Positions 1 to 63,699 of a stretch of DNA of 64,000 nucleotides are shown one piece after another (positions within the stretch are counted from its first letter, which is position 1; each line of letters opens with the position of its first letter). The notes beneath the pieces are model-generated. The model was given only the letters and a program-made list of their open reading frames with translations, searched no databases and was not told the DNA's origin. This DNA comes from a virus (lineage: Duplodnaviria; Caudoviricetes). The translations under genes were made by a program, and so were the position numbers. The DNA lies in the IMG/VR virus record IMGVR_UViG_3300047159_000040, positions 32,001-96,000 of that record. One strand, written 5' to 3'.

Positions 1-2996
1 GCCGATTCCGTTGATATGGCGGAAGCATTGGCGTCGATAGACGACTGAAGCGCATTGTCTCTTGACAGTCTGGCGGCTGACTCATCGGAGTCGGCTTTGT
101 TAAGCGCAGTTACTTTGGTGTCGATCTCGGTTTTGGTGTAGGCGTCGGTGATTCCGAATCCGGAAACGGTGGTCGGTTTCGATGCCAAGTTGGCGAACGT
201 CGTGTTATGAGGGTTGGTTCCGTCGGTGATCTGGCTGTGGGCGAACGCCGTTAGATCAAGATGCTTGTACGTCGAGTCTGTGTGAGACCAGTAGTATGCG
301 TCTGATTTGCTAAGATCAACGTAGATGTAGTGGATGTCTCCGGCATCGACGCCCTGATCGTTCTTTGGGAAATCCGATCTTGTGGCATATTGGAATAATC
401 CGCTCCAAGCGTGAGTAGTCGTGAGAGCAGAGCTTATCGCTGCGGCCTTGGCTGCGTCGACGTATGCTTTTACGACGCTGTTTTGAACAGGATTATACGA
501 GGCATCGGACATGGCCTTATCGACAGCCACGATTCCGACTGACGTGTCGGTGGCGCGATTGAAGGTGAATGTCAGATCGTTTCCTATCTTAGCGTTTTCG
601 GCATTGACTAGATGGAGCCCTATCTTGTAATAATAGTTATAGATAGTCCCATCGGATCTTGTGTCATATCCCGTCTGAGTTCCGCCGAAATCGGCTAAGT
701 CGATCGGAACGTACTTCTCCAATCCGCCGCTGGTTACTGGATTGGCCGAGTCCTTTGTAGGAGTCGCATCGAAAGTAAGATTATTCTGTTTGCTGCTCTG
801 AAGATTCGCTATGTCTGAGTCATTTGAAGCGATGTTGTCTGCATTTACTTTCTCGGCGGCTTTGGCTCTGGATATCTCGTTGGCGATATCGGTTCTATTG
901 GTGGAGATATCGGATTCGTTCTTGGTGACTCTGGTCTCAAGGGAGGTGGCTCTGCTGGCATTGCTTTGCGATCTTGAATCGGTCGTGATTAGCTCATTGA
1001 CGAAGTCTTTGCTCATCAAGCCATCGTTGGTTGTCGTCGCCAGCTGCACATCGTGGCCAAGATCATCCCACGACGATCCGTTCCAGACGTAATCGACGTT
1101 TGTGGCTGTGGTTCCGGAAACGCCGTCTGAAGAGCTTCCGTCATTCTCGACGGTTTCTACGACATAGACGTCTCCTACAGACATCCCGGTCAAGGCAAGC
1201 AAAGCTGCGTATGTGCTTACTTTTCCTCTGTATGTATAGGCGATGGCGGCTTTGTCGGCCACCGCTTTGAGCTGGGTATCAAGCGCCAGTATCGAAGTCT
1301 GAACGTTCGATTTTGATTTGTCTGAATCTGTAGGAAGATAGTTGCTTCCTGAATTGCTGACAGCGATATCCGCGGCAGTCAGGGAATTTATTTTATTTTC
1401 CAGATCGGTGTCTTTATTTGCTCTCGCGGTCTGCTCGTTGTCTATCCTGACGCCTAGCGCATTGTCCGCCGAGACTCTGCTATTCGTCTCCGTGGCGATA
1501 TTCGAGGCGTTCTTTGAGATATTGGAAGCATTGGCTGAGATATTTGCGGCGTTGGTTTGCTCAGCGGCTCTGGCTGTCGACGCCTCGCTCTCAAGCGACG
1601 ACTGCAAAGAGTCATCCTTGGCTTTGCGTGCGGCAGCTTCCGTTTTATCGGCGGAGTCTCTGGCTGTGGTCTCAGCCGTTAGGGCGCTGATGGTGTCGGC
1701 TGCGGTAGTGTCTATTCTCTCCAGAATAGAGGATATCTTATTGATGGTCTGCTGAACATTCTCTGAACTGTAGAGAAGGTAATCCTCAACGACATTTCCA
1801 GACTCATCGGTCGTGTAGTTATTGGCATAGATCTGAGAAGCGCTGAGCGCATTCATATGCGTCCAGATGGCATTGTCATTCGTCTCTCGAGTCTTGGCTT
1901 CGGTGCTGATATCGGTGAGAAGCTCTTGTCTCTTGATTGAGATATCGTCGCTAAGATCCTTCTTTAGGATCGTGTCTTGGCTGTCGGCATATGCTCTTGA
2001 GTTTGTTTCAGACGTATCGGTGTACGCCTTAAGCTCGGTTCTCAATGAATTATCGGCATTGGCTCTGTTGGTCGCCTCTGACGTGATGTCAGAAGATATT
2101 GATTTAATGGCTGCCGCGTTTACCAAGACATCGACTTTTATGTCATTTTCATTGGCTCTGGCCAGACTGGCTTCGGCATCGAGATTCGATTTAGCGGTGG
2201 TCGCATAAGACTCATCTTGCTGATCAACGTATTTCTTGGCAGTAACAAGAGAAGCGCTAGCCGATGCGTCGGTATATGACTTCGATGACGCCAGGTTGGC
2301 ATCGCTGTAAGCTTCGGCGGTTATGATGGTTTCGGCATCGGCTTGAATGCGGGCGGTCTTTTCTGAAGATACCGCAGCCGCGGCAGCCGATTCAACGCTG
2401 GCTATCGAAGAGTTTATAGTATCGAGAGCCGCGGTAAGCTTGGCAATCGTCGATTCCTCGAGAGTGCTTATGCTTCCGGTTCCTTCGCTCCAGATAGCTG
2501 CGACCTTGGCTATGGTCTCGGCTTGGGTTGCTGATAGAAGGCTTGAATTGGTAAGGTATTTCTTGACATCAGATCTCGTCGCTTCGATGGTCTCGGCAAT
2601 GCTGTCAGCGGAGATCGATCCGTTGGTCTTATTGGCGGCAAGCTCGGCTTTGTAGATGGCGTAATACTGCTTGAAGTACTGCTCGTATATGCGCTTGAAG
2701 TTAAGTACTTTCGATACCTGGGTCTTATAGTCGTCGTTAGTGAAGGCGATGTTATAGTCGGTAAGGATGTCCTTGGCGGCGAGTTCCTCTATCTTGGCGT
2801 TGATCTCAGTCTCAGACGTCACCTCAGCCGAAAGAGGCGAGTCGGCGTTTGATCGCAGTTCAGCGACCATCGCATCGAAATCATAGACGTATTTGTCAGT
2901 GAACGTTAAAGACACGGACGAAGTAGCGGCCGTCGTTTCAGTGGTTGTCGTAGTAGCGGAAGACTTCAATCCGGTGGTGCCTAACTTCAATGACAT
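1..2996 (-). CDS. Tail fibre / long coiled-coil fibre protein, 3' end runs out of the window
   Basis: Not in the ORF track because it is open at the window edge. ATG at 2996 with a GAGG RBS and a late promoter upstream. Translation starts MSLKLGTTGLKSSATTTTT. It has Ala/Ser/Asp-rich coiled-coil repeats and typical fibre motifs (YRGKVSTYAALLAL..VGDVYVV, YVWNGSSWDDLG, KPTTVSGFGITDAYTKTEID). Confidence 0.75.
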   Translation of the reverse strand, partial: MSLKLGTTGLKSSATTTTTETTAATSSVSLTFTDKYVYDFDAMVAELRSNADSPLSAEVTSETEINAKIEELAAKDILTDYNIAFTNDDYKTQVSKVLNFKRIYEQYFKQYYAIYKAELAANKTNGSISADSIAETIEATRSDVKKYLTNSSLLSATQAETIAKVAAIWSEGTGSISTLEESTIAKLTAALDTINSSIASVESAAAAAVSSEKTARIQADAETIITAEAYSDANLASSKSYTDASASASLVTAKKYVDQQDESYATTAKSNLDAEASLARANENDIKVDVLVNAAAIKSISSDITSEATNRANADNSLRTELKAYTDTSETNSRAYADSQDTILKKDLSDDISIKRQELLTDISTEAKTRETNDNAIWTHMNALSASQIYANNYTTDESGNVVEDYLLYSSENVQQTINKISSILERIDTTAADTISALTAETTARDSADKTEAAARKAKDDSLQSSLESEASTARAAEQTNAANISANASNISKNASNIATETNSRVSADNALGVRIDNEQTARANKDTDLENKINSLTAADIAVSNSGSNYLPTDSDKSKSNVQTSILALDTQLKAVADKAAIAYTYRGKVSTYAALLALTGMSVGDVYVVETVENDGSSSDGVSGTTATNVDYVWNGSSWDDLGHDVQLATTTNDGLMSKDFVNELITTDSRSQSNASRATSLETRVTKNESDISTNRTDIANEISRAKAAEKVNADNIASNDSDIANLQSSKQNNLTFDATPTKDSANPVTSGGLEKYVPIDLADFGGTQTGYDTRSDGTIYNYYYKIGLHLVNAENAKIGNDLTFTFNRATDTSVGIVAVDKAMSDASYNPVQNSVVKAYVDAAKAAAISSALTTTHAWSGLFQYATRSDFPKNDQGVDAGDIHYIYVDLSKSDAYYWSHTDSTYKHLDLTAFAHSQITDGTNPHNTTFANLASKPTTVSGFGITDAYTKTEIDTKVTALNKADSDESAARLSRDNALQSSIDANASAISTES

Positions 2997-3136
2997 GTAT
3001 GAATCCTCTTAACGAAATACGCGTTGATAATCAATTGTTCAAGACGACCAGATTCCAACGAGCCAAATCAAGAATTTGATATTTGGGCGAGAATAAGAAT
3101 ATATGATTTATCAAATAACAAGGAGGCATACAAGGT

Positions 3137-3265
3137 ATGCTAAAGAAAGATTCTAGCAGATACGACTGGTTAGACAATACGTCTAATCCAAAGTTGGCGG
3201 AGGCTTATTGCCGTCGTCAGCAGAATCAGAATACTAAAATCAACGAGGCCGTGAAGGCCAAGTAA
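3137..3265 (+). CDS. Small 42-aa hypothetical protein (MLKKDSSRYDWLDNTSNPKLAEAYCRRQQNQNTKINEAVKAK)
   Basis: Perfect AAGGAGG RBS at 3120-3126. The ORF fills the intergenic gap and is followed directly by a terminator. Confidence 0.55.
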   Translation: MLKKDSSRYDWLDNTSNPKLAEAYCRRQQNQNTKINEAVKAK

Positions 3266-3307
3266 AAAGAAAGGTCCTGACGCAAGCCAGGATCTTTTTT
3301 TTATTTT
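3264..3307. terminator. Bidirectional intrinsic terminator
   Basis: A-tract, AGGTCCTG-loop-CAGGATCT hairpin, then T-tract, between convergent ORFs. Confidence 0.7.
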
Positions 3308-3320
3308 CCGGACTGACGGA

Positions 3321-3509
3321 TCAAATCTTCTTAGACAGCCAGATTTGACCGATGGCCGGATTGTCTGGATTGGGGTTCTCCCCATCGGAGTACTCATGAA
3401 CCTGAGCCACGAGAGGAGCCGTCGAATTGAGACGAGATCCCGCCTTGATCTGATCGAGATTGTAAGTAGTCCCTGGGGTTCCTTTGATTCCGATAGTTCT
3501 TTTTGCCAT
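3321..3509 (-). CDS. Small tail-associated hypothetical protein
   Basis: Abuts the upstream ORF. The C-terminal P..IGQIWL motif is common in fibre-associated proteins. Confidence 0.55.
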   Translation of the reverse strand: MAKRTIGIKGTPGTTYNLDQIKAGSRLNSTAPLVAQVHEYSDGENPNPDNPAIGQIWLSKKI

Positions 3510-3510
3510 T

Positions 3511-4524
3511 TTACATGACCTTCCTGATAATGATCATTAATCTTCCGTCTATGTTCGACGGATCTACTTTCTTGCCCGTCCAGTCGACGAGAGAGAACTT
3601 GACGTATCCTGCTTTCATCGTATTATCCGAGACGTCAGACGAAACCGATGTTATCGAATATCCTGAGAATCTGTTGTATCCCACGATCTTATTCGTGTTG
3701 ATCTGAACCTCAAACTTGGGCTCAGCCATCGAATCCCCTAGAACGTCATTCTGAGCATCCCTCTCAATGGAGAATTCCATGAGCTTGGTGTCATAGAAGC
3801 ACTGGATTCCCGCTCCGCTTATCTTTGGGAGCTCGACCCATCTTAGCTTAGTCCCGGTATTCTTGCAAACAGGCTTTGCCTCATATATCCCATACGCGGC
3901 TACCTTGAGAGTGGCTATTCCGATCATCTCAGACGGATCTTCTTCTTCGGATTCGCTCGGACCGACCTCTACCTCTATTTCCTCTATGACTATGCTTGAT
4001 ATGGCGATCTTTCCGCAAGTGAAATAGAGCATTGCCTCAGTTCCATAAGATCTGAACACTCCATGGCATGCGACGGTCTCATAAGTCCCGGACAGGTCCC
4101 TCTTAAGGACAAGATCGTTGACGTCATTTGAAACAGTGATGCTGCGATCATTGGTTATCTCGATGGGAAGATTGGTCTTGCCGGCGTCCTTAGCTTTGAC
4201 CGTCAGCTGGTAGAACGTTCCTTTCTTTAGACCAAGGATATCGAAATTGAAGGTAAGCATGTCAGGCTCGAAATTAGGAGAGTTGTAAATGCTTCCGCCA
4301 TCCTCGACTGAATAGAACATTCCCTTTCCCATGTATCCGCCAGGGGTGACGATGGCTTTGGTGGTGTCGGTCGTCTTGAAAGAGGTCGTGAATTCGCTGA
4401 TTCCGTTTCTGATTGAGAACTCGTCCTTGTCTTCAAGGACGCAGTTCGAGAAATTCATATTATAGATAGTCTGCGTGATCTTCTTGACTTGTGAGGCCGT
4501 TTCTTTATCGTTCATGTTTATCAC
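3511..4524 (-). CDS. Hypothetical virion protein, beta-rich, possible carbohydrate-binding module
   Basis: 337-aa ORF in a late operon next to the tail fibre. Function is inferred from context only. Confidence 0.6.
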   Translation of the reverse strand: MINMNDKETASQVKKITQTIYNMNFSNCVLEDKDEFSIRNGISEFTTSFKTTDTTKAIVTPGGYMGKGMFYSVEDGGSIYNSPNFEPDMLTFNFDILGLKKGTFYQLTVKAKDAGKTNLPIEITNDRSITVSNDVNDLVLKRDLSGTYETVACHGVFRSYGTEAMLYFTCGKIAISSIVIEEIEVEVGPSESEEEDPSEMIGIATLKVAAYGIYEAKPVCKNTGTKLRWVELPKISGAGIQCFYDTKLMEFSIERDAQNDVLGDSMAEPKFEVQINTNKIVGYNRFSGYSITSVSSDVSDNTMKAGYVKFSLVDWTGKKVDPSNIDGRLMIIIRKVM

Positions 4525-4525
4525 C

Positions 4526-6082
4526 TCACTTCATATACAGCTGATTCTTATGCACGACCACGCCTCGGATGACGTTTCCTTCCGGAACGGTCAAGCGAAG
4601 GGTTATCTGCGATGAAGGAGATTGCTGCAGCATTTTGATGACGTGCCTGGTCTCTTTTTTGTCGGATGATTGAAGGACTAGATGGAGAGTAGGCTCGATG
4701 ATGACATCGTTTTCGTCGTAGAACTCAAGCCCTTCTCCTCCCTCTCCGTCAACCATGACGTCGATGTTGTTGCATGGAGTCTCGCTTATTAGCATCGTCA
4801 CGTCGTGGCTAGACGAAAGCTTTGGGATCGAATACTTGACGACGGTTCCTTCGGATATCGCATAGAACGAATCCTTTATCATAAGCATTCCGCTTAGATC
4901 ATATTCTTTGGCTATGATGCTGGCCCCGATCGTTCCGTCAGGGTTTCCGGCGAGTATGCGATCTTTGATGCTAAACCAGAATTTATTGTCGTATACGCTG
5001 AAGAACCCGAGGTCATCATACTCAGCGGATATTCCATACTGGTCGTATATGACCTCTGATGGGGCTTGGCCAGGAAGGTCGAGATTGTATTCCCATACGA
5101 ACGGAGATCCGTTCTTTACTCCCAATATCCAGGCATATCTGCCATTATTGCAGAGATATTTAGCCTGATACGCGAAGTCTTCCTTGGCAGGATGCGTAAT
5201 CGGATCAAGCAATTCTAGCCCAGCTCCGGCGGCGTCCTTTTTCCACACGTGAAGAATGCGACCATTCTGGCAAGGGCTGTATGATCTTCCAAGAACCGCG
5301 AATCCGACGTATCCTATCTTCTGCATGGCGATAGGAAGCTGATATCCGGATCTTCTAAGGCAATCGTATGACGCGTACTTGCATCCGGTCTCGAAGTCAC
5401 CGATGATGACCCCGTCTCTGTTGTCAGAAACCGTTATGGCGACTTTTCCGTCTCCGAGATCCTTGATTCCGATGACGTTCGGGATCTGGAACTTAAGCTC
5501 GTATAAGTCTATCGTAGGATCGAAATAGAACACTCCGTCAGATTCGGTTGCGATAAGGAACCCGCTTCCATGGGAATCGAAGTCTGATATCGAATTAGAA
5601 TCCGACACCGCTCTTTGGAACTTGTCTTTGATGGCGGTAACCGCCTGAACCGTAGAGACAAGCTTTCCGGTGGATACCTCGATCTTAGAGACGCTTCCGT
5701 CCTCGCTGAGAGCGAGAATGAATCCATCGTCCGACAATTTGATCTTGGTTATCTTCGAATCAGGGACGAACACGATGTCGGCATTCGATTCCATAGCCGC
5801 CGATGGGAAGAAGCTTGGCTTCGATTCCCCGACGATCATCTGGCGGTCAAACGCGGACATGTAATCTATATCCGATCTCAAAAGATGCTTCAGCATTCCG
5901 GCAATCTCGTCGGCTTTGTACACCGTGCGCATGAAGGACTCGTTTACGTATCTAGTCGAGAAAGCGGTGCCGTTGTAGCAGACTATGCCGCCAAGATCAG
6001 GGCTGTACCCAGCCTTGAGATTCTCGAACTGATTGAGCTTGTCGATGACTTTCTGGTCAAGCTCTTTTTCCTGAACCTTCAT
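4526..6082 (-). CDS. Hypothetical virion protein, probable beta-propeller
   Basis: 518 aa with repeated short strands ending in D/G turns (LALSEDGSVSKI, LIATESDGVFYF). Late promoter at 6105-6116. Confidence 0.6.
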   Translation of the reverse strand: MKVQEKELDQKVIDKLNQFENLKAGYSPDLGGIVCYNGTAFSTRYVNESFMRTVYKADEIAGMLKHLLRSDIDYMSAFDRQMIVGESKPSFFPSAAMESNADIVFVPDSKITKIKLSDDGFILALSEDGSVSKIEVSTGKLVSTVQAVTAIKDKFQRAVSDSNSISDFDSHGSGFLIATESDGVFYFDPTIDLYELKFQIPNVIGIKDLGDGKVAITVSDNRDGVIIGDFETGCKYASYDCLRRSGYQLPIAMQKIGYVGFAVLGRSYSPCQNGRILHVWKKDAAGAGLELLDPITHPAKEDFAYQAKYLCNNGRYAWILGVKNGSPFVWEYNLDLPGQAPSEVIYDQYGISAEYDDLGFFSVYDNKFWFSIKDRILAGNPDGTIGASIIAKEYDLSGMLMIKDSFYAISEGTVVKYSIPKLSSSHDVTMLISETPCNNIDVMVDGEGGEGLEFYDENDVIIEPTLHLVLQSSDKKETRHVIKMLQQSPSSQITLRLTVPEGNVIRGVVVHKNQLYMK

Positions 6083-6187
6083 TTATAGCGCCTCGATGAA
6101 TGCATAATCAATTGTTCGAGAGGCTATATCAGGCCAAATCTGGGATTTATTTATTTTTTTCCGCGATGGCGGCTCAAACAACCGATT

Positions 6188-6682
6188 ATGGCAACAAAAA
6201 CACACAATCCATCAGTTACTAAGACAATTACTATACAGTTCGACACCGAGCCAATAGCTTATGCCCGTGAGAGATTCACCAAGTTCGGAGGAGCCGGGCA
6301 TGGCAGATTCTACAATCCAAGGGCATCCGTCATCGACGCTTACAACAAAGCTGCCAAAGCGATGCTAAGCGACGAAGACCGATCGTTTCTCGATGCGCTG
6401 ATCAACGACAAAGCCGCTGACTATCAGCTAGAGATCAGCGGAAAGTTTTACGTTGCCATCCCTAAATCAGCTCCTGAGTGGAAGAAGAAGCTTATGGAGG
6501 ATGGCAGCATCCGCCCTTGCATCAGGCCAGACGTCGATAACTTCATAAAGCTCATATTAGACGCCATGCACGGAGTCCTATACGAAGACGATAAGAGAGT
6601 CGTGTCTATCTCATCTAATAAATTCTATTCCGAAAGCCCACGAACCGAGCTGACTGTAAAAGTATCGGTGTTTAAGAACTAG
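6188..6682 (+). CDS. rusA: RusA-family Holliday junction resolvase
   Basis: RPDVDNFIKLILDAM..YEDDKRVV catalytic motif, and the KFYSESPRTE tail typical of RusA. Confidence 0.9.
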   Translation: MATKTHNPSVTKTITIQFDTEPIAYARERFTKFGGAGHGRFYNPRASVIDAYNKAAKAMLSDEDRSFLDALINDKAADYQLEISGKFYVAIPKSAPEWKKKLMEDGSIRPCIRPDVDNFIKLILDAMHGVLYEDDKRVVSISSNKFYSESPRTELTVKVSVFKN

Positions 6683-6690
6683 CCCGCCGA

Positions 6691-6699
6691 TGTTATAAT
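6691..6699 (+). promoter_or_regulatory. Extended -10 sigmaA promoter (TGTTATAAT)
   Basis: Exact TGnTATAAT, followed by an AAAGGA RBS and the ATG at 6724. Confidence 0.55.
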
Positions 6700-6723
6700 A
6701 TCCGTACGAAAGGACTAAAAATT

Positions 6724-7552
6724 ATGAAAAAGTATTTCTTAATCAGCGATATCCATGGCTTCTATGACGCGATGACCGAGTCATTGACCGAAGCCGGATA
6801 TGACCCAAAAAAACAAAGATCACGTCCTTGTAGTCCTTGGCGATCTCTTCGACAGAGGAGACAACCCCAAGGAGATCAAGGCATACCTTGATGAGATCCC
6901 TGATGAGCGCAAGATCCTCATTCGCGGAAACCACGAGGCTCTTTTCCGTGATCTCATCAGAAGAAAAGCCGTTTATAACATCGATATCTCAAACGGAACG
7001 TTCAGCACTCTCTGCGATTTCTGCGGATATCATGGATGCTATGACTATTTCGACAAAGACCCCAGCATGGGAAAGTTCGCATCGATGTGCGACCAATGCA
7101 AGTGGTATATCGACTGGGTATTCGGAAAAGACTCGAAGTGGGTAAATTATTTCGAGCTTGGTAACTACATCATGGTTCATAGCTGGGTTCCTATCTTAAT
7201 CCCTAACGACGACATGATCTACGACGGAGATCTCATTCTGGCAAGCTACAACCCAGATTGGCGCAAAGCAAGCCAGCATGACTGGGAGATGGCGGCTTGG
7301 GTATGGCCAATCAGAGCCATCTATAAGAAGCTTCTTCCTCCAAAGAAGACCATGATCTTCGGCCACTGGTGCACAAGCGATCTCCATAGCGAGTTCGATG
7401 AGCCTAAGCCGTGCTTTGAAGACAATACCACGTTCGTTGGAAAGAGATGCATCGGACTCGATGCGACAACGGTGGTTAGCGGATATTGCAACGTCGTCGT
7501 ATTAGAGCAGTCCGATGATGGAAAAGTTCGTCGTCTTCCTATCAAAGACTAA
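6724..7552 (+). CDS. Calcineurin-like metallophosphoesterase with an apparent +1 frameshift at the A7 run (6807-6813)
   Basis: Motif I (SDIHG) is in the frame starting at 6724. GDLFDRG, GNHE, H and GHW motifs are in the frame of ORF 6800-7552. Removing one A joins them (YDPKNKDHVLVVLGD). Confidence 0.85.
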
Positions 7553-7587
7553 AAAAGACCTGGCATCGAGCCAGGCCTTTTCTTTTT
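7551..7587. terminator. Bidirectional intrinsic terminator
   Basis: AAAAAAG-ACCTGGC-loop-GCCAGGC-CTTTT between convergent genes. Confidence 0.7.
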
Positions 7588-7589
7588 GA

Positions 7590-9218
7590 TCACATGCTCG
7601 ACTTGATCTGCAGAAGCATTGAATCTAGCTCCGTCTTGCCTATAAGGCTTCGGCTGGCAAGCGTCTCAGACGCCATCCTTAGCTTGGTCTCGAACAAAGC
7701 GTCATCCATAGACATCGTGGAAAGAACGGTGCAGTCGCTGGTATTGGAGGCGTCATCCCCATTATTGAGGCGTTTAAGATCCGAATCGGATATCCCGATT
7801 ATCCCGAAAGCGCCTGACTTGGTTGATATATGCCTGAAGTTGCCATACTTCTTCTTGTTTCCGATGCATAGCGCAAGATAAGAGAACACATCAGGGCTCT
7901 CTGGCTTTTTATTTCCGTGGAGGCCATTGATCGAATTATTCTCTTTTTCGTCTATGACGTCTATCCGGCACAGCATTAGGCTGCGCCTTACTCTCGAAGA
8001 AACGTACACCGAGAATCCTTCGACGAACTTGAATCTTGAGTCTTTCTTGTTCATCAGGGAAACGATCTTATCAACGGTGTCTCTGTTAAAGTAGTAGTTT
8101 GAGTTATCGGACATGGCGTACTTATCGGCGGTGCTAGTGTCAGTATCTACCCTGAACTGAGTGCATATCGATCCTTTGTGCTGATAGAATACCCTGACGA
8201 ATCTGTTCGATCCGCTGAACTCAGTTCCGACTTTGATGGCTACGCATTTATCGACTCCGTTGAGCTTCTTGTAGTATTTGATCTTCTCATTTTTGACTAT
8301 GGCGCGCATGCTTTTAATGACATCGGGAGGGATCAGATCGTATGATCTGTCGTCTATGAGTTTGATCTCATGGAAGTCATCGTCATCCAAGGTTCTAGGG
8401 AACTTCAGCTTGTATATCTCGCAGCTCATCTCAGCCATCGTGCTATACGACCCATGCTGACTGGTGGCGTCTATGGCATAGTCAAAGACAAAAGTGCCTA
8501 ATTCCTTTTTTCTGATGCTGACGTCCTGCCCGACTGAATCTGGTGTTCCGTAGCACATACGACCTTTTGAGAATTCAAGATTGACATATGTTCCGACTAC
8601 GTCATAAAGGCCGGTCGAGAAAATGCTTATGGATGAGGATGAGTTTTCGATATTGAACTTGGCGAATCGGAAATTATTTTTTATTTCATCGAAAAGATGC
8701 TCATCGTTCTTGTGGCATGAGCCGAATGTTATGAGAGAGATGCTGTCCATCCAGCTGATGATTCTGCTCTCAATGAGATCTTCTGACGAGTTGGGATCCT
8801 CGTTGCTTCTTCGATAAAGCATTATCTCAGTCTCTATGACGATCTGACGCATCTGCGATCCTCTGTCAAGATTGGATCTTTCATCCGTGAAGATATTGAC
8901 GATGTTGGTTGGGCATACGATTATGAACGGGTATCTGTCAGCTGATCTGCTGCGGCATGGCATCTCGATCTGATCCGTAAGAAGAAGCGATGCCGGCGTG
9001 GCCGATCCATTGGAAGAGCTGGAGATCATGGACTCGTCATTTTTCTTAGCATCCGACGCGGTATCCTTCAAAGGCGGATACCCATAGCAAAGTATCGCCG
9101 AGTAACTGTATCTGTTGCTCGTCTTGTTGTAGATATATTCCATCAGCTCTGAAGAAGTTATCATATCATCCGTCCTTAGCAACACAAGCATAACATCTTG
9201 AATCGGCATTTGCAACAA
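7590..9218 (-). CDS. Hypothetical protein (start uncertain)
   Basis: 542-aa ORF with no motif recognised. Confidence 0.7.
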   Translation of the reverse strand: MLQMPIQDVMLVLLRTDDMITSSELMEYIYNKTSNRYSYSAILCYGYPPLKDTASDAKKNDESMISSSSNGSATPASLLLTDQIEMPCRSRSADRYPFIIVCPTNIVNIFTDERSNLDRGSQMRQIVIETEIMLYRRSNEDPNSSEDLIESRIISWMDSISLITFGSCHKNDEHLFDEIKNNFRFAKFNIENSSSSISIFSTGLYDVVGTYVNLEFSKGRMCYGTPDSVGQDVSIRKKELGTFVFDYAIDATSQHGSYSTMAEMSCEIYKLKFPRTLDDDDFHEIKLIDDRSYDLIPPDVIKSMRAIVKNEKIKYYKKLNGVDKCVAIKVGTEFSGSNRFVRVFYQHKGSICTQFRVDTDTSTADKYAMSDNSNYYFNRDTVDKIVSLMNKKDSRFKFVEGFSVYVSSRVRRSLMLCRIDVIDEKENNSINGLHGNKKPESPDVFSYLALCIGNKKKYGNFRHISTKSGAFGIIGISDSDLKRLNNGDDASNTSDCTVLSTMSMDDALFETKLRMASETLASRSLIGKTELDSMLLQIKSSM

Positions 9219-9263
9219 TACGCAGATACCTTCTGGGGAACTTTCTCACGTCAACAATGAATT

Positions 9264-11681: not shown

Positions 11682-11682
11682 C

Positions 11683-11907
11683 ATGGCAAGCACCGTAAGC
11701 ACAACCGCGACTTCAACAACAGGATCATCTTCCACCAAAACGACCGCCGATTACATCGCGGACTATAAAACGGCTTGCAGCGACATGATAGACTCAGCCA
11801 GGGATTATATGTCCGAATATTCGTCCTATTGCACGAAGTCAGGAAAAGACGTCAAGTCGCTTAAGACGAAGATGAAAGAGAAGATAGCCAGAGGAATCTC
11901 GCAATGA
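11683..11907 (+). CDS. Small Ser/Thr-rich hypothetical protein
   Basis: Tightly packed between neighbouring ORFs. Confidence 0.6.
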   Translation: MASTVSTTATSTTGSSSTKTTADYIADYKTACSDMIDSARDYMSEYSSYCTKSGKDVKSLKTKMKEKIARGISQ

Positions 11908-13778: not shown

Positions 13779-13815
13779 TAAATTAGTCCTTCTTCAAAGA
13801 TATTCTAATCTTCGC

Positions 13816-52908: not shown

Positions 52909-53595
52909 TTGGCCATGGAAAAAAATAAAATATCCGAGAAAGCATTCCTCGTCAACAACGACATCTACGGCGAGGTCTCTATCAAAGACTCCGATGGAAA
53001 TGTCCTTCTTGATAAAAAGAACATGATCGTCCTGTCAGGGCGCAGAGCCATCATGAACGTCCTATTCTCTAACACATCGGCGTACTTATTCAACACGATG
53101 TACATGGGATCGGGAACTGATCTCAGCAATCAGAACATGACAGCATCGGATGCCAAGGTGAGCATCTCATTCGGTATACCGAGCGTTTATTATACCGGAG
53201 TCACATTGTCCTCATCGTCGTCATCGTCTTACACCTACACCTTCGGAACATACAACAATTCCTCGTCTAAAACAAGCACTTCGCAAACAGTCTCGTCGGC
53301 ATCCGTTAGCGCAGGCGATGAAATCAGCCTGGTGACAACGACTGCCGAATCCGTGTCCGGAGGCCAATTCGCATACATGGTCGATTCGTCAAGCGCCGTC
53401 CCTGAATGCCACATCTGCTGCAAATACAAAGAGACGTCGTCTCAGCACGCCATAACGGAGATGGGACTAATGTCCATGTCCGCTGGGTCATATCCAGTAG
53501 CATCGTCAGACACGCTGTTCTCAAGAGTCGTATTCGATCCGGTCTATCTGATGCCTGGGTCGTCATATCAGATCGATTACCACATATACTTCTGA
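52909..53595 (+). CDS. Tail collar / fibre-attachment-like protein (tandem paralog)
   Basis: KNMIVLSGR...ITEMGL...LFSRVVFDPVYL, sharing its C-terminus with the previous gene. Confidence 0.65.
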   Translation: MAMEKNKISEKAFLVNNDIYGEVSIKDSDGNVLLDKKNMIVLSGRRAIMNVLFSNTSAYLFNTMYMGSGTDLSNQNMTASDAKVSISFGIPSVYYTGVTLSSSSSSSYTYTFGTYNNSSSKTSTSQTVSSASVSAGDEISLVTTTAESVSGGQFAYMVDSSSAVPECHICCKYKETSSQHAITEMGLMSMSAGSYPVASSDTLFSRVVFDPVYLMPGSSYQIDYHIYF

Positions 53596-53643
53596 TTCGC
53601 CGATTCATTGGAAATAAAATTATTTTAGTAAGAGGCTGTCGCA

Positions 53644-54855
53644 ATGGCACAAAGAAGGCATTTGACTGATTCGGAGACGCAGGAAGTCCTTGCTCTCACG
53701 AGAAAAGACATCAACATGACATTGCTTAAGCGGTACTTCGCCGCCATTAACGATGCGCCAGCCCCGCGTTTTCACACCAACGATATCATGACATTGCCTG
53801 CCGGAAAGCTTTACAACAAAACGGCAGTCGAGACCACCATCGGAAGATACATCTTCGAGATGTTCGTCCTTCCTACGAAGTATCTCATGAAATACGGATA
53901 CATCAATACCCCATTCACCGGAGATGTTCTTGAGGGAACGGAGAATAAGCTGGCCAACATGCTTCTTAACGATGAGATCACCGTCCAGGACTACGCGTCC
54001 TATCTCGATAACGGAGAATGGATATCCATGGGCCAAGCCTATTACATCACCCCGTCTCTTAGCTTTGACTTCATGCAGCCTCTTCCAGACGTCATCGCCA
54101 AGAAGAACGAGCTGTTCAAGCAATACGACAAGGAGCTGTCTTCCGGAGATACCAACGTCGCTTCTAAAGTCGAGAATGAGCTCCTCGACATGGCCAAGAA
54201 AGAGTTGAAGGCAAAGGGCGATCCTTCGATGGACTTCTATAATCAGGGCGGCGAATTCAAATTCCCCGTTGCTTATAAGAAGACGTCTATCATGGGCGGA
54301 ATCGTCGATGATATCAACAAGGGCGGAGTCGATGTCCTTAAGTCGAACTACATCGACGGAATCACCAAAGAGGACTTCGCCAAGTTCGCGAACCTCACCG
54401 TCGATGGCGGATACGCCAGAGGCGTCAAGACCCAGGAAGATGGCTATATGACCAAGAAGTACAACAACGCCATGCAAACCGTCGTCCTTGACGAAAAAGG
54501 ATCCGATTGCCATACGCATCAGACCCTTCAGGTAACCATTTACCCTGAGCTTAAGACAATGTTCTTATATCGCTATATAGTTGAGGGCGGCAAGTACAAA
54601 TTGCTCGATGACTCCAACATAGATCAGTATGTCGGAAAGGTCGTGAGCCTGAGATCGCCGATGCTCTGCACCGGAGATAAGATTTGCAATATATGCGCCG
54701 GAGAACTATATTATAAAATGGGTATCGAGAATATCGGCCTTCTATCCAACACGGCATCCGGAAACCTCATGAACCTCTCAATGAAGAAGGTCCACGACTC
54801 AACCGTCAAGTTCATCAAGATAGACGCGTCGAAATACATCACTCAGCTAAGTTAG
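53644..54855 (+). CDS. Phage multisubunit RNA polymerase beta-prime fragment (bridge helix and zinc-binding region)
   Basis: TTIGRYIF, ARGVKTQEDGYMTKK (bridge helix), DCHT, and LRSPMLC...ICNICAG. Confidence 0.88.
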   Translation: MAQRRHLTDSETQEVLALTRKDINMTLLKRYFAAINDAPAPRFHTNDIMTLPAGKLYNKTAVETTIGRYIFEMFVLPTKYLMKYGYINTPFTGDVLEGTENKLANMLLNDEITVQDYASYLDNGEWISMGQAYYITPSLSFDFMQPLPDVIAKKNELFKQYDKELSSGDTNVASKVENELLDMAKKELKAKGDPSMDFYNQGGEFKFPVAYKKTSIMGGIVDDINKGGVDVLKSNYIDGITKEDFAKFANLTVDGGYARGVKTQEDGYMTKKYNNAMQTVVLDEKGSDCHTHQTLQVTIYPELKTMFLYRYIVEGGKYKLLDDSNIDQYVGKVVSLRSPMLCTGDKICNICAGELYYKMGIENIGLLSNTASGNLMNLSMKKVHDSTVKFIKIDASKYITQLS

Positions 54856-55599: not shown

Positions 55600-56181
55600 A
55601 TGAGAAAGATCACTATCCTTGACGAAGAATACAACAAAGCGCAAATGCTTGATATCATGGGAAGCCGTGCTGCAGACGCAGCCCTTTCCGTCTTCGAAAG
55701 CAAAGCGTCTGAAATGGCGCATAAATGCTATGAAGGAATGACCGAATCGGCATTGGATTGCCCGGGATTCTTCGAAGTTCGCAATGATCCAACCGTCAAA
55801 TTCTTCCTTTCAGAGAAGACCGCGAAGGCCCTTGCCTCGAAAGTAAGATCAGGATTCGGAGAGACTTCTCTTGAAGAAGCCATTAAGGTCGGAGTCGAAT
55901 CGGAAAGATTCCTCAAGCCGCAATCAAAAGACGACTTTGGGCTGGTTGAGGCGTTCTATCGCGGAGCAGACATCAAGTCTAACGGAAGCGGACTGGTCGT
56001 CACCAAATCAAAGATCGGAGCTGGATCGGAATTGCTTGAAGGATATGATCGGCTTAGATCAGATCTGTTCTGCATGATGCAATCTCCTACCGATTATGAT
56101 GAGCCGGCCCTCAAGAATGTCCTTGAAGGATTGATGATCATCTGCGACGTCTGCGGCGTCAATCCGGAAAATAAAAAATAA
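55600..56181 (+). CDS. Hypothetical late protein
   Basis: Start MRKIT after a GAGG RBS and the late promoter at 55566. Confidence 0.7.
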   Translation: MRKITILDEEYNKAQMLDIMGSRAADAALSVFESKASEMAHKCYEGMTESALDCPGFFEVRNDPTVKFFLSEKTAKALASKVRSGFGETSLEEAIKVGVESERFLKPQSKDDFGLVEAFYRGADIKSNGSGLVVTKSKIGAGSELLEGYDRLRSDLFCMMQSPTDYDEPALKNVLEGLMIICDVCGVNPENKK

Positions 56182-56197
56182 ATAGGGAAGTCCAAGC

Positions 56198-58238: not shown

Positions 58239-58394
58239 ATGCCGTTTATTCCTCGGGAAAATAAAAATAAAATCCTCATAATCGATTGTTCAGGGCCAGT
58301 CTCTAATTCCGGCTTAGAGATATATGATTTTGGTGTGAGAGTGAGCGGCATCGGCCAATGCTTGCCTAATCCCACGTTAAAAGGAGATAAATTT

Positions 58395-58712: not shown

Positions 58713-58834
58713 AGACAGCCGCCCAGCCAGCGGCTTCTTTTTTTGCTTCCGGAGGACCAGAATGGCCAGAAGCCTACGAACAATCTATTATCGAAACGTC
58801 AGCGTCACTCACGTCGTCGGAGGAATAAAATATT

Positions 58835-59638
58835 ATGCAAGACACCGATCAGTCAGCTGAGATCCTTGGTTCAGCGTACGATATGTACCGAGCCAAGAAG
58901 ATCACCAAAGGCGCCTTTGAATCAGAGCTTAAGGATTACCTTGATAACAACGGATCGCTCAGCGATTCGATCGTTAGAATCGAGGATGAGGACGGAACCG
59001 ACTCAAGCAAGTCGTTCGTCGCAGCCGTCCTGCCTGAATTGAAGAACGGAACCTATGAAACATTCATTCTCCTCGGGGCTCACTGCCTCGACAATGACTG
59101 GATCTGCGACAGAAATAATTGCGGAGTGGTCCTGAAGAATCTTCTCGACGGGCTTAACGAAGCCGCTCAGAAAGCGATCCTCGTTCTGTCGTTCTTCGAC
59201 CGCCAAGTCGAGCATAACGAATTCACGCTGTCTGACATACTGATCGCCTATCTCAAAGTGTATTACGCAGCCATCAGCTGCTATCCGCCTTCCGTCATAG
59301 ACGCCATCACCGACAAGCACATCCTCGACATCGATGCCGTCAAGAAAGCTTTGTCTGACGCAACCGACACCGATGACGCAGCCGAGCTTCTCAAGAGATT
59401 GGATGACGACAGAGTCATGCCTAAGGTGTTCTTCACCGTCATCAATGAGCAATACAGCAGCGAGATCGCGGCCAAGACGAAGACCATGAAAGCCAAGATG
59501 GCCAAGATCACCGGTCTGACTGATCTCCCTAAGGACAATGAGCTCGGAAACACGATCATCTCCAACACCAATTCTGACATCGGAGACGGATTCGGAGGGC
59601 CGGCCGGAGAGAAAGGCGGGCCGTCTATCAAGTTCTGA
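58835..59638 (+). CDS. Hypothetical late protein
   Basis: GGAGG RBS and late promoter at 58779. Confidence 0.7.
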   Translation: MQDTDQSAEILGSAYDMYRAKKITKGAFESELKDYLDNNGSLSDSIVRIEDEDGTDSSKSFVAAVLPELKNGTYETFILLGAHCLDNDWICDRNNCGVVLKNLLDGLNEAAQKAILVLSFFDRQVEHNEFTLSDILIAYLKVYYAAISCYPPSVIDAITDKHILDIDAVKKALSDATDTDDAAELLKRLDDDRVMPKVFFTVINEQYSSEIAAKTKTMKAKMAKITGLTDLPKDNELGNTIISNTNSDIGDGFGGPAGEKGGPSIKF

Positions 59639-59660
59639 TCCGACTGGAAAAAAATAAAAT

Positions 59661-59733
59661 AAACCCGGAGTCGCATAGACTTCGGGTTTTCTTTAGCAAA
59701 ATAACCGGATCCTGATTTCTCAGGACCCGGTTA
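59661..59733. terminator. Two tandem terminator hairpins between convergent operons
   Basis: AAACCCGGAGTC/GACTTCGGGTTTT and TAACCGGATCCTGA/TCAGGACCCGGTTA. Confidence 0.7.
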
Positions 59734-59748: not shown

Positions 59749-61386
59749 TTAGGCGATGTCAGCAGGAGAAGTAACTGCAGTCCAGTGGCCAGCGAGGTAG
59801 CCCGGGTTGCTGTTATTCTTGACGACGATTAATCCGATGGCCGGGGTGAATGCCTGGAAGGCATGTCTCTTGGTCATCATGATTGACGGAACATACGGAT
59901 GGTTCGGATCACGATATCCGCGTTCAGTCGAGAAGGTGTACGGATAGTACTTGTAGGTCATCTGATCCTCAGCATCCGGTAAGAACACGAGGTAGAGGCC
60001 ACCTTGCGGAACGAGCGGTGAGCTGATGATCTTGAAGTTGCTGCCGTTTCCGACATAAGTTCCAAGTTCATAGTCGACCGAGACGCCATCGACAGTCTGG
60101 CCTTGGCCACCGCGGAATTCCCAGTTGACGTTGCTGATGAGAGCAGTGTCGATCGGGTTGCCGACGATGCTGAAGGTGCCAATCTGGAAGTATGACGCCT
60201 GTTTGATTAATTGAGCGACGTGGTCGATCAACGGCTTAAGCTCTTCTCTCCAGAGCTTCGGGCTGCCAGCAAAGCCAGCGGCAGGAATGCAGTCGAAAGT
60301 GAAGCTGAAGTTAGTTGCCTTATAGACAGTCGAATCGAATTCATCGACTGACGGCTGATTGAGGAATTCGTTCTCAAGGAAGTCGAGAACATCCTGGTCA
60401 ACCTTGGTCGCGAAGACGTTGGTCATCGTGTCGATGACTTCGGCAGTCTGGTCGATCTTGTAGAGCGCTTGCATATCCTGGAGTTGCTCAATGGTGATAG
60501 GAGCATTGAGGTGCGTTCCAGTCGGAATTGCGATGTTGATACGCTTGGTTTCGAACATCAAGCTGTATCCAGAATCGTTGAATTCGGTTGATTGATGAAC
60601 GCGGAACACGATCCTGCATTTAGCAGGAGCAGTTCCGATCCAGCCCATATCAACAAGGCCTTTAGCGAAATCGACATTGACAGCGAGCTTGTAAGTCTTA
60701 GTGCCATCCTTGCTGGTGACAGTAACGACGGAGCTTCCATCAGTGCCCAAGATCTTGTTTAAAACAACGGTCTTGTCGATAGCAGTATCTCCAACCCCGA
60801 TGCTGTAGAGCTTAGTTCCACGATCGAGATTGGTGACGGCTTTTCCATCGCTTCCAGTAAGTAACTTCGCGCCAAGGCCAATCTTGGTTTCATCGAAAGT
60901 AGCTTCGGTGTAATCTTTCAGAGCTTGGTTTGCATCAGCAACAGTAGCGTTGCCAAGCGTATTTTGTCCAGCAGCTCCGATCAATCCTTTCGGAAGCTCG
61001 ACGCGATTGCCATCTTTGTCTTCGAAATACGGCTTAAGATAGCTGACGGTGAGGTACGGCGAATCGGCGACTTGGGTCTTGATCGCGTTCTTAAGCGCGA
61101 AACGCGGCCAAAGCTTGCGGATGACGGGCATGCTCATAGAAGCGATCGGGGTGATGCCGGAGACCGATTCTGCGAGGAGTTGCTGTTTGTTGGTGTTCGC
61201 CATGAGCTGCGACATAACCGCGGCATCATCGGCAGATGCACCCTGGGTGAGACTTTCGACGTAAGTGTGGAAGAGTTCAGGATCATTCTCGACTTCACCG
61301 AAGCCATTTCCGAGAATGCTGAGCTGCATCGACTTGAACGTGTCATAGGTCTCACGGAGAATTGACTTATAATCTGAATTTTCCAT
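59749..61386 (-). CDS. Major capsid protein (T4 gp23-like)
   Basis: Cleavable N-arm ending LLAES, PVIRK, TIEQLQDMQALYKID, and YKYYPY...PSIMMTKR. Strong codon bias. Confidence 0.9.
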   Translation of the reverse strand: MENSDYKSILRETYDTFKSMQLSILGNGFGEVENDPELFHTYVESLTQGASADDAAVMSQLMANTNKQQLLAESVSGITPIASMSMPVIRKLWPRFALKNAIKTQVADSPYLTVSYLKPYFEDKDGNRVELPKGLIGAAGQNTLGNATVADANQALKDYTEATFDETKIGLGAKLLTGSDGKAVTNLDRGTKLYSIGVGDTAIDKTVVLNKILGTDGSSVVTVTSKDGTKTYKLAVNVDFAKGLVDMGWIGTAPAKCRIVFRVHQSTEFNDSGYSLMFETKRINIAIPTGTHLNAPITIEQLQDMQALYKIDQTAEVIDTMTNVFATKVDQDVLDFLENEFLNQPSVDEFDSTVYKATNFSFTFDCIPAAGFAGSPKLWREELKPLIDHVAQLIKQASYFQIGTFSIVGNPIDTALISNVNWEFRGGQGQTVDGVSVDYELGTYVGNGSNFKIISSPLVPQGGLYLVFLPDAEDQMTYKYYPYTFSTERGYRDPNHPYVPSIMMTKRHAFQAFTPAIGLIVVKNNSNPGYLAGHWTAVTSPADIA

Positions 61387-61513
61387 GTGATATGGACCTT
61401 CCAAGTTTATTCATTCGTCCAACGATAGTACGCGGGCATTTATTTATATGAATGGTGTGTGAATGATTTTAATCGCTTTTCAACTGATGCGATGGCGGTT
61501 TTGGCGTCCGGCG

Positions 61514-62119: not shown

Positions 62120-62490
62120 GGCCGTCTCCTCCGTGGTTCGCTCAATTCTTTTTGCGGCTGAAAAATCGGCCGCCGGACATCAAACGCATGCATCTTTGAT
62201 ATAATCGCAGAAGCGCACATTCAATGTGGGTAATTGGTTGTTCTTTTTCTAGAAGTAAAAATTTATTTTTTTCGCATAATTTGACGAACAAATAACGAAA
62301 TAGTAATAAAATGCAAAATGGCATTATGCGTCCGTAAACACGCATGGATTCTGGCATTGTTAAAACGTAATGACTAACTTTGCATTTTATAGCGTTTTTA
62401 AGTAAATCGACCAAAATCGCAAAATCACCAGACACAGCGGAGCGAACAATTGATTATCAAAATATCGTGACTAGGAGGCTCTAATCAATC

Positions 62491-63699
62491 ATGAGCTTTA
62501 TTATAAACGAGGCTGCCATCGCTAGCGAACCACGAATCGAAAGCTCGAATGCCAACGTCGTTAAGTTCGTCGCCATTCTTCAGGAAGCCGACAAGAAGAA
62601 TAGAAACGGAAGAATCTATCCGCGCCATGTCCTTGAAGAAGGAATCTCAGCGTCGCAATTCCAGGAGAAGCTCAGAACCAAGAACCTCTTCGGAGAATGC
62701 GGACATCCTCTTGACCAGTCGGTCATGCGCCAAATGAGCATCGATCAGCGCAACATCGCTTTCATCGTCGATGAGGTTTGGTGGGATGGCGATCTGCTTA
62801 TGGGCAGATGCGAAACCGCCAACACCGAAGCCGGACGAGACATGAAAGGCCTGATCGAGCAAGGAACGCAAGTCGCGTTCAGCCTTCGCGCCCAAGGAAA
62901 CGTCCATAAGGATTACAAGCAGGGAGCCGATGTCGTCGACTCTCCTATCATGATCTGCTCTTGGGATTGGGTCTGCCTTCCGAGCCACGACAAAGCTTAT
63001 CTTGATCACATCTGCGAAGATACCAGCAAGATGATGTTCCGCGTCTCCAACACGAGATCGGTTGCAGCATCGCTCAATGAGTCGCTTTCTTTATATACTA
63101 ATGGGTCGCTTACCCCGATCGATGACAAAGCGATGAAAGGCGCCTTGGTAGAGGACTATTCCTCATACTATGGAAAGCCGGCCATCCCGCAGGACAAAAT
63201 CTATGTTCCGGATTCGAGCGACGTCGTTCAGTCCATCAACAAGAACGAGACCGTCCTCATCAACGGCAGCACGGTCAAGAAAGTCTATACCGAAGACTAC
63301 GTCATGAAGGACATCCGCTCCAAGATCAGCGAATTCGGCAAGACGCCGGAAGAGCTCAACGAAGGGGAAAAAATAAAAAAACTCCGTCATGACTATTACA
63401 TGCACAAGGCCATGCATGCCCAGGACAAAGCGTCCGACATCCAAGGCCAGATGAGCGCCGAGATGCAGAAGATCATCACGCTTGCCCTTCAGTACTACTC
63501 CAAAGAAATCGCCGCCGGCCAGATGACCGAAGACGACGCCATCAAGAAATACATGACCAAAGAGCATGGCGAGGACCATGTCTCTGGTAAGTATGACAAA
63601 CTCAGCGGCAAGAAGAACGCCGCCGAGGTCGATGTCGCATACAATGCGAAGAGGGCCGAAACCCTTATGCCTGACGCCCCTACCATGGAGGGTAAATAA
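62491..63699 (+). CDS. Prohead core protease (T4 gp21-like)
   Basis: LQEADKKNRNGRIYP, GECGHP, FSLRAQG and WDWVCLPSH. Confidence 0.92.
   Translation: MSFIINEAAIASEPRIESSNANVVKFVAILQEADKKNRNGRIYPRHVLEEGISASQFQEKLRTKNLFGECGHPLDQSVMRQMSIDQRNIAFIVDEVWWDGDLLMGRCETANTEAGRDMKGLIEQGTQVAFSLRAQGNVHKDYKQGADVVDSPIMICSWDWVCLPSHDKAYLDHICEDTSKMMFRVSNTRSVAASLNESLSLYTNGSLTPIDDKAMKGALVEDYSSYYGKPAIPQDKIYVPDSSDVVQSINKNETVLINGSTVKKVYTEDYVMKDIRSKISEFGKTPEELNEGEKIKKLRHDYYMHKAMHAQDKASDIQGQMSAEMQKIITLALQYYSKEIAAGQMTEDDAIKKYMTKEHGEDHVSGKYDKLSGKKNAAEVDVAYNAKRAETLMPDAPTMEGK

Follow-up and report, generated by a model that had tools for sequence, protein, structure and literature searches.

A/T islets in the genome of an AR9-like phage

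The element under study is an uninterrupted run of A/T base pairs, most commonly 16 bp long and typically bracketed by G and C residues, that recurs along the genome of an uncultivated phage. The window analyzed is a stretch of 64,000 nucleotides corresponding to bases 32001-96000 of the 145,948-bp IMG/VR record IMGVR_UViG_3300047159_000040; coordinates designated "genome" follow the numbering of the record and all others that of the window. CheckV completeness of the record is 57%, and genome-wide counts cover that part, with 43% of the genome lying outside the record. A simple codon-usage call yielded 114 genes at 88% coding density, in which some start codons are approximate. Among the encoded products are a capsid protein of the gp23 type, a prohead protease, a T4-type baseplate protein, a tail sheath, a terminase and a GroEL-like protein.

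Bacillus phages AR9 and PBS1 have capsid proteins that share 36% identity with the one encoded here, and weaker matches are to Staphylococcus, Listeria and Yersinia phages of the AR9 group. Three separate genes specify fragments of the beta and beta-prime subunits of a multisubunit RNA polymerase, as in AR9 and phiKZ: beta-like fragments are located at 53644-54855 (plus strand) and genome 110601-112505, and a beta-prime fragment with an Rpb1_2 domain at genome 117657-119111. By its capsid identity and split RNA polymerase genes the phage is a jumbo phage of the AR9 kind. The GC content is 49%, compared with 25-36% in most relatives. The best clues to the host point to Clostridia: a TnpB gene discussed below has its best identities (53-56%) with sequences from uncultured Clostridia and Mogibacterium, which are too distant to name a host. 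Scans of the window with Rfam and for tRNA genes produced no matches.

Counts of pure A/T runs in the whole record fall geometrically with length, from 16,183 at length 1 to three at 11 bp and three at 12 bp, and then climb again to 9 runs of 13 bp, 10 of 14 bp, 20 of 15 bp and 37 of 16 bp, followed by six of 17 bp and two of 18 bp. These 84 runs of 13-18 bp, with their sharp length peak at 16 bp, are referred to here as islets. A third-order Markov model trained on the same genome predicts 3.8 runs of at least 13 bp and 0.17 runs of exactly 16 bp. Inside genes, 38 runs of at least 13 bp were observed against 5-8 in synonymous-codon shuffles, and 31 runs of 15-16 bp against ~1.5. The preliminary description of the window listed 32 A/T runs and proposed that they exceed chance expectation from base composition. 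All 32 positions hold pure A/T runs of 13-17 bp, and both the Markov model and the codon shuffles, the latter being the control that had been advocated, fall far below the observed counts and fail to reproduce the excess or the length peak. Runs at 22348 (15 bp), 54707 (13 bp) and 61438 (12 bp) were missed in that listing, and the number of runs of exactly 16 bp is 16 and not the 17 stated.

A complete related phage of similar composition (IMG/VR, 241 kb, 48.4% GC) displays a clean geometric fall in run length with no A/T run longer than 12 bp. The islets are lineage-specific, as this relative has none. Shorter runs are scarce in the genome under study: outside the islets, 22 A/T runs of 9-12 bp were found compared to 75 expected from synonymous shuffles. 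Within genes, runs of 6-12 bp are two- to fourfold rarer than in the shuffles both in this genome and in the 241-kb relative. Purging of partial sites was considered as the source of this depletion and rejected, as the islet-free control phage is equally or more depleted; the scarcity apparently is common to these mid-GC genomes, or else reflects a shortcoming of the shuffle null.

The canonical islet has the form GGA-(A/T)14-TCC, a two-fold symmetric frame that reads alike on both strands. Of the 37 copies of 16 bp, 36 have a G immediately before the tract and 29 have a further G; the tract opens with A in all 37, closes with T in 34, and is followed by C in 35 and by another C in 25. The GGA...TCC frame encloses 46% of islets, compared with just 0.6-1.1% for A/T runs in the 5-9 bp range, so that the GG and CC brackets noted at the outset are specific flanks. 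The interior is loosely conserved, approximating to AAATAAAAAATAAWTT, and is A-richer on the sense strand; conservation at individual interior positions is weak (A at 50-90%), the fixed features being the first A, the last T and the flanks. The A-rich strand follows the coding strand and flips with gene orientation near 31-34 kb, as the preliminary description had stated. The 16-mer at genome 90258 recurs without change, as its reverse complement, at genome 133292. Separately, the islets at genome 8391-8405 and 9292-9307 are mirror copies of each other.

Islet spacing and occurrence within genes

Islets are dispersed more evenly than random placement would allow. The coefficient of variation of the gaps is 0.52 compared with 0.98 for random placement, a value that none of 20,000 simulations attained, and the largest gap is ~4,980 bp where 8,597 bp is expected at random (P = 0.001). 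Gap sizes cover the range of ~0.2 to 3.2 kb rather uniformly and are cut off above it, with two exceptions of 3,765 and 4,980 bp. The original characterization of the islets as regularly spaced therefore holds in the sense that their distribution is clearly non-random and the gaps are bounded, but there is no period and adjacent gaps are not anticorrelated. A fixed periodicity was rejected since the best phase coherence, 0.28, is inside the random range. A rule of minimal cover also was rejected, because adjacent gaps are uncorrelated and 41% of islets could be removed without opening a gap of more than 3.2 kb.

The 4,980-bp gap contains a TnpB-type insertion of ~1.34 kb (39948-41313, minus strand), in agreement with the earlier suggestion that the widest interval is where an insertion sequence entered, and the presence of this insertion accounts for the one islet-free gap of ~5 kb. 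The element has 26-nt direct repeats at both ends and encodes a Cas12f1-like TNB domain; the tnpB gene is apparently split into two overlapping frames on the minus strand (39997-40752 and 40469-41194).

The islets comprise 58 boundary copies and 26 copies deep inside genes. When the boundary copies are held fixed, each gap of more than 4 kb holds at least one of the internal copies, except for the gap with the TnpB insertion, and random placement of the 26 internal copies in coding sequence was never as even (0 of 20,000). Gene-internal copies fill the long gaps between boundary copies. Intergenic room is not limiting, as a 570-bp intergenic stretch (genome 130995-131566) lacks an islet. At the left end of the record (genome 1-3300), seven islets lie within 3.2 kb that has almost no called genes, a uniquely high islet density.

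The deep internal copies, most of which are in late structural genes, hold the frame most strictly: the initial A is present in 25 and the final T in 24 of the 26, and the outward CC is kept equally often on the two sides (24 and 21 of 26). Their A fraction on the sense strand is 0.61, which is near balance, compared with 0.72 at gene boundaries. In the window, GG...CC-bracketed islets of 15 bp are located deep in a 2006-amino acid (aa) gene (1385-1399, minus strand; encoded peptide ENKINS), in an 836-aa virion structural gene (22348-22362, minus; ENNNYS), which is one of the copies absent from the first listing, deep in an 866-aa gene (25838-25852, minus; EKYNIS) and in the GroEL-like gene (37092-37106, plus; GNKKYF). 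Bracketed islets of 16 bp mark the midpoints of an 805-aa gene (10449-10464, plus; IKNKKS) and a 1358-aa gene (50437-50452, plus; NILNKS), and are also found in a 277-aa gene (23825-23840, A/T balanced with no strand assigned; EEIKYFF) and a 1051-aa gene (30804-30819, minus; GEIKNIF). The last gene possesses a second 16-bp islet that is A/T balanced, likewise without strand, and has one atypical flank (31412-31427; PNILKYP). A further 16-bp islet is deep in a 542-aa gene (8671-8686, minus; EIKNNF), and a 14-bp islet is within the prohead protease gene (63368-63381, plus; EKIKK). A 13-bp run in the beta-like polymerase gene (54707-54719, plus), also not in the first listing, has non-canonical flanks and is a doubtful member.

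Gene-internal islets use all three reading frames and the encoded peptides vary. They employ codons that their genes otherwise avoid, as had been proposed: elsewhere AAG constitutes 61%, AAC 58%, ATC 66% and TTC 89% of the respective codon families, and A/T-only codons that occur in the islets are rare, with ATT, TTT and TTA making up 10, 12 and 5% of their families. In the GroEL-like protein, GNKKYF aligns without insertion with the GLRAIA/GLKNVA/GLKAVA helix of solved chaperonins; as judged from this alignment, the islet overwrites a conserved GroEL helix without inserting residues. The peptide KIKK in the protease is kept in two relatives at ~79-80% identity, and GEIKNIF of the 1051-aa protein is intact in a 44%-identical homologue in which the second islet aligns with a proline-flanked IKIF. 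Retention of these peptides is suggestive only, as the surrounding sequence also is conserved and the comparison is at the protein level. An origin by insertion of A/T filler inside GGCC or GGATCC was rejected because islet lengths are not multiples of three and the homologue alignments have no indels at the islets.

The islets clearly are a selected signal at the nucleic acid level, and are not a product of base composition or protein sequence, because all null models are exceeded, three reading frames are used, the GroEL helix is overwritten and long gaps are filled. That they might be no functional unit at all, but the residue of an AT-rich ancestor, a mutational artefact or a recurrent peptide motif, is highly improbable. 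An AT-rich ancestor is plausible when most relatives have 25-36% GC, but such an origin does not accommodate the sharp length peak with specific flanks, the use of three frames with varied peptides and no indels relative to homologues, the gap filling, or the lack of islets in the 241-kb relative of the same GC content.

Islets at gene boundaries, terminators and promoters

Intergenic positions or those straddling a gene edge account for 46 of the 84 islets. Gene starts and gene ends are marked alike and independently of gene polarity: 32 islets are near a start and 32 near an end, each ~4 times the random value (8.6% expected for each). An islet is present at 8 of the 10 convergent, 7 of the 10 divergent and 32 of the 93 co-directional junctions; the divergent count would rise to eight if the start of the 1358-aa gene were moved.

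Islets near start codons in the window include 16-bp copies in the final 22 nt of a 262-aa gene (13838-13853, minus; next start codon 59 nt on), in an intergenic region (15450-15465, minus, GG...CC; start codon 22 nt on), at a divergent junction 12 nt from the terminase start codon (17475-17490, minus), in the final 35 nt of a 204-aa gene (27830-27845, minus, GG...CC; next start codon 31 nt on), 55 nt before the DNA primase start codon (43514-43529, plus, GG...CC) and 16 nt before that of the RNA polymerase beta-like fragment (53612-53627, plus). A 15-bp copy overlaps the stop codon of the GroEL-like gene (38535-38549, plus; next start codon 17 nt on), and a 17-bp copy overlaps another stop codon (56168-56184, plus; next start codon 13 nt on). 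Two 13-bp A/T spacers, between a GAGGG ribosome-binding site and ATG (45428-45440, plus) and between GGAGG and ATG (58824-58836, plus), possibly belong to a different class. Three copies in the genome occupy codons 2-8, immediately behind a start codon served by a ribosome-binding site of its own, exemplified by a 15-bp, GG...CC-flanked islet in codons 2-6 (52919-52933, plus).

This arrangement could indicate a signal that acts in RNA, whereby an unstructured A/U tract aids ribosome loading, or an A/U-specific endoribonuclease cuts polycistronic transcripts. Many islets are 12-22 nt before a start codon or within codons 2-8, and the sense RNA is A-rich. Neither mechanism, however, accounts for G/C flanks on two strands, the fixed length, copies between divergent promoters, deep internal copies or the filling of gaps, and no in-frame start codons were found downstream of gene-internal islets. 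A role in RNA is considered quite unlikely.

Approximately 12 islets abut a compact G+C-rich hairpin and, when read in one direction, supply a 14-16 nt T-rich terminator tail. Eight such terminator-tract islets are at convergent junctions. Those in the window that abut terminator hairpins at convergent junctions are a 15-bp tract beside a bidirectional hairpin (12594-12608, minus) and two 14-bp tracts (20570-20583, minus; 46511-46524, plus). A 16-bp tract abuts a bidirectional terminator between a 267-aa gene and the major capsid gene (59648-59663, plus), a 15-bp tract located 23 nt upstream of a late promoter supplies the T-rich tail for a terminator on the minus strand (33241-33255, plus), and a 13-bp A-tract of the terminator class with non-canonical flanks immediately precedes a hairpin (3295-3307, minus). 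Strong hairpins are upstream of the T-rich reading at 14 of the 58 boundary islets compared to six on the other side, with ~6 expected. Only about 12-14 of the 84 copies thereby resemble intrinsic terminators; the other ~70, including all gene-internal copies, lack an adjacent hairpin, and hairpins are not enriched beside gene-internal islets (mean fold energy -4.4 kcal/mol compared to -4.1 kcal/mol for controls). The proposal in the preliminary description of a DNA-level signal, read for example by a protein of genome organization, packaging, ejection or segregation, is upheld as regards a selected nucleic acid signal, but needs correction for the ~12 copies that double as T-tracts of hairpin terminators. 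Like the tails of hairpin terminators, these copies lie at gene ends immediately before or after a G+C-rich hairpin, but the tract is 14-16 bp of pure A/T instead of the usual 7-9 U, and terminator islets share their internal pattern with copies that are not terminators.

Islets might be one-way transcription stops at which a 16-nt U-rich RNA:DNA hybrid releases the divergent phage polymerase in the T-rich direction. They would then protect gene regions from antisense or read-in transcripts of more than ~3 kb and, when behind a hairpin, would end sense transcripts. The sense strand is A-rich almost everywhere, so that the T-rich reading is antisense, and strong hairpins favor the upstream side of the T-rich reading, as described above. 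The late-promoter motif is short and is bound to occur by chance, antisense late promoters are found in AR9 (PMC5312081), and bounded gaps would cap the length of stray transcripts. Conversely, gene-internal islets have no hairpin and are near A/T balance, which leaves only a modest U content when they are read antisense. Several islets are untranscribed because of their location between divergent promoters, and hairpin-free termination is not known for this type of polymerase. We regard a stop function as unlikely.

AR9 late promoters have the form AACA-N6-TA/G (PMC5312081; PMC7598289). A late-promoter motif, GAACAATCGATTAT, which corresponds to the AR9 form AACA-N6-TA, has 38 matches genome-wide with up to three mismatches, for example at 6177-6189 (plus), 17559-17571 (plus), 33205-33217 (minus) and 62445-62457 (plus). 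Many matches are 22-47 nt before sheath, protease and structural genes, and at several the TA is continuous with ATG, which would give a leaderless transcript with AUG at its 5' end. By these matches, a putative late-promoter class is present and is distinct from the islets. The AR9 polymerase needs deoxyuridine in the late-promoter motif and, with that motif present here, the phage therefore may have uracil-containing DNA. The region upstream of the capsid gene (59749-61404, minus strand) yielded no AACA-type motif. It does hold, ~34 nt before the gene start, a 12-bp A/T run (61438-61449) in which TATAAATA, the T4 late-promoter word, is present. A late-promoter-like motif also precedes the gene for a diadenylate cyclase (DAC) domain protein (44648-45424, plus strand; Pfam E = 1.4e-34).

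Several islets sit between divergent promoters, and others at divergent junctions. In the window, a 16-bp GG...CC islet lies between two divergent AACA-type late promoters (6145-6160, minus), a 16-bp islet in a divergent region has a late-promoter-like motif on each side (48425-48440, minus), a 13-bp tract at a divergent junction is 17 nt from such a motif (34260-34272, plus), a 16-bp GG...CC islet at a divergent junction is immediately downstream of a minus-strand late promoter (58258-58273, plus), and a 17-bp tract occupies the divergent junction upstream of the prohead protease operon (62256-62272, minus). An islet is present ~5-28 nt ahead of AACA at approximately 8-10 of the 38 matches to the late-promoter motif, where a rough estimate from islet density gives ~1. 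A/T-rich UP elements sit upstream of bacterial promoters, and these islets resemble them in position. Most late promoters nevertheless lack an islet and most islets are far from a late promoter, and we know of no alpha subunit of the phage polymerase that could read an element of the UP type.

Host-type promoters also were sought. A sigma-70 consensus scan of positions 1-20000 recovered 25 sites compared with 25.7 in shuffled sequence, which is no excess, and no -35-like element was found upstream of islets. Two non-canonical 14-bp runs (genome 102485 and 124420) resemble the spacer of a TTGCTT...TATAAT promoter. They coincide with a stretch of ~60 nt that is repeated at genome 102485-102560 and 124420-124495 and has the look of a host-type promoter (TTGCTT, an A/T-rich spacer and TATAAT); one copy adjoins a second transposase gene (genome 123057-124403; PHROG transposase).

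AR9 early promoters, which are read by the virion polymerase, are AT-rich and consist of AAATATATATTAT followed by six bases and G at +1 (PMC5312081; review PMC7598289). The islets correspondingly might be promoters of a second RNA polymerase of the phage, the counterparts of the AT-rich early promoters that characterize the AR9/phiKZ family, with the polymerase melting the clamped A/T tract and starting a few bases downstream. This possibility, which we hold to be real if on balance doubtful, is favored by the AR9-like nature of the phage as reflected in the 36% capsid identity, the split beta and beta-prime genes and the 38 late-promoter matches. Enrichment in intergenic DNA is confined to two motif families, the islets and the late-promoter motif, and with the late class present the islets therefore could, by elimination, be the early class. 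Moreover, 17 A-rich islets are 12-66 nt before start codons, including those of the primase, a helicase and three RNA polymerase fragments; the genes that have late-promoter motifs before them are sheath, protease and structural genes. At a distance of 6-8 nt downstream of the tract, purines are in excess (34 of 45 at position 6), a geometry close to that of AR9, but this enrichment is confounded with ribosome-binding sites.

Relatives also bear on this point. No close relatives were found in IMG/VR by capsid protein alone, and alignment-based scans of IMG/VR, JGI metagenomes and GTDB genomes revealed only distant relatives, most of which are AT-rich. An exact search of IMG/VR with islet 20-mers gave a single match, on an unrelated giant-virus contig. 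Two distant mid-GC relatives, L035 (IMG/VR, 17.7 kb, 55% GC) and L038 (a contig of a GTDB metagenome-assembled genome, 50.5% GC), have A/T islets of 11-17 bp at gene boundaries about every 2 kb. These share an AR9-like common core, ATATATTATAA, and lack the GGA...TCC frame; one precedes a terminator hairpin at a convergent junction.

Set against a promoter function, known early promoters are highly conserved in sequence, number ~6-41 per genome and are upstream of early operons (PMC5312081; PMC7598289), whereas the islet interior is barely conserved beyond A/T content and, at this weak per-position conservation, no highly conserved AT-rich core of ~10-13 nt is present. The 26 copies deep inside mostly late structural genes, the marking of 8 of 10 convergent junctions and of gene ends as often as starts, the ~12 copies that would fire straight into a terminator hairpin, the three copies after a start codon, the two-fold symmetry of the frame, and the gap filling for which a promoter has no obvious use are all difficult to reconcile with transcription initiation. 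In summary, islets are like AR9/phiKZ early promoters in being extended A/T-only elements in a phage with split multisubunit RNA polymerases, in the similar density at gene boundaries of mid-GC relatives, and in that some of them precede the primase, a helicase and polymerase genes. They are unlike them in being defined by A/T content, length and GGA...TCC clamps, in their occurrence also in late genes and at convergent junctions, and in their bounded gaps.

A possible loading signal on phage DNA

The reading that we favor, with a probability of roughly 0.4, is that islets are where a phage-specified protein of limited range loads or nucleates. The reader would sense either a minor groove free of guanine over ~16 bp or the ease with which the tract melts, with G:C pairs clamping the tract on both sides; deoxyuridine, if carried as in AR9, would ease melting further. 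From its site the protein would act over a limited distance by spreading or tracking along the DNA, and a site would therefore be needed at least every ~3.2 kb. Formation of a protective or compacting coat, a checkpoint in packaging or for a nuclease, and polymerase entry are candidate processes. Sites would be placed where the cost is least, that is, in intergenic DNA, in first or last codons and at some internal positions. Transcribed islets would be oriented so that the RNA is A-rich, with the exception of those behind hairpins where the T-rich strand serves as a terminator tail. The A bias of the sense strand would be a side effect, as peptides rich in K and N are tolerated better than those rich in F, I, L and Y, and long U-rich stretches of RNA may be avoided except where termination is wanted. 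A protein as the reader, its limited range and the strand bias as a by-product are what we infer from the pattern as a whole. A single rule at the level of the duplex would explain all of the placements, at starts, ends, convergent junctions and gene interiors alike.

Several observations weigh against a loading site. The part of the genome in the record (57%) yielded no candidate reader: no HU-family protein was found there, and no AT-hook motif was detected among the 114 called proteins from the same part. The A-rich islets directly before the primase, helicase and three polymerase fragment genes fit a promoter role, and a symmetric reader has no need of an interior that is A-rich on the sense strand at boundaries. 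Under a pure maximum-gap rule the removable 41% of islets are dispensable, and the absence of anticorrelation between adjacent gaps likewise is unfavorable. Finally, a tract length of 13-18 bp is loose for a rigid dimer. Loading sites and promoters are not fully exclusive as interpretations, because a polymerase itself tracks along DNA.

A broader and tentative possibility, more doubtful than probable, is that islets constitute a genome-wide "self" tag, such that a machine moving or spreading on phage DNA must meet GGA-W14-TCC within ~3 kb. Candidates would be a protective or compacting coat that nucleates at the islets, a packaging nuclease that chooses its cut site, or a nuclease that is switched off there. 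By estimate, a host genome would almost never contain GGA-W14-TCC by chance.

Dispersed words are familiar in bacteria, among them the DNA uptake sequences of Haemophilus and Neisseria, Chi, and the cyanobacterial HIP1 palindrome. Such signals are far above chance, lie in coding sequence at tolerated places, are enriched at terminators and are more even than random; they are fixed words of 5-12 bases in cellular chromosomes with known or suspected readers. The islets are similar in being far over-represented, in entering coding sequence at the expense of codon choice, and in their more even than random spread, so that any piece of DNA of a few kilobases carries one. They differ in being an element of composition and length, and in residing in a virus. 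To our knowledge, no phage equivalent has been described.

Phage genomes usually are read as genes plus local regulatory sites. The islets go beyond this as a signal at bounded intervals, defined by composition and length, that overrides codon choice, even in a conserved chaperonin helix, along at least 146 kb. If the phage RNA polymerase is what reads them, the range of AR9/phiKZ early promoters would be broader than supposed, and the question would arise of why such promoters are needed inside late genes. If the reader is something else, a dispersed identity or loading signal would have been described in a virus for the first time, and the islets would offer a sequence handle toward a new genome-organizing or genome-protecting protein of jumbo phages. 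A self tag, if true, would be a viral counterpart of Chi or of DNA uptake sequences that is imposed on protein-coding sequence.

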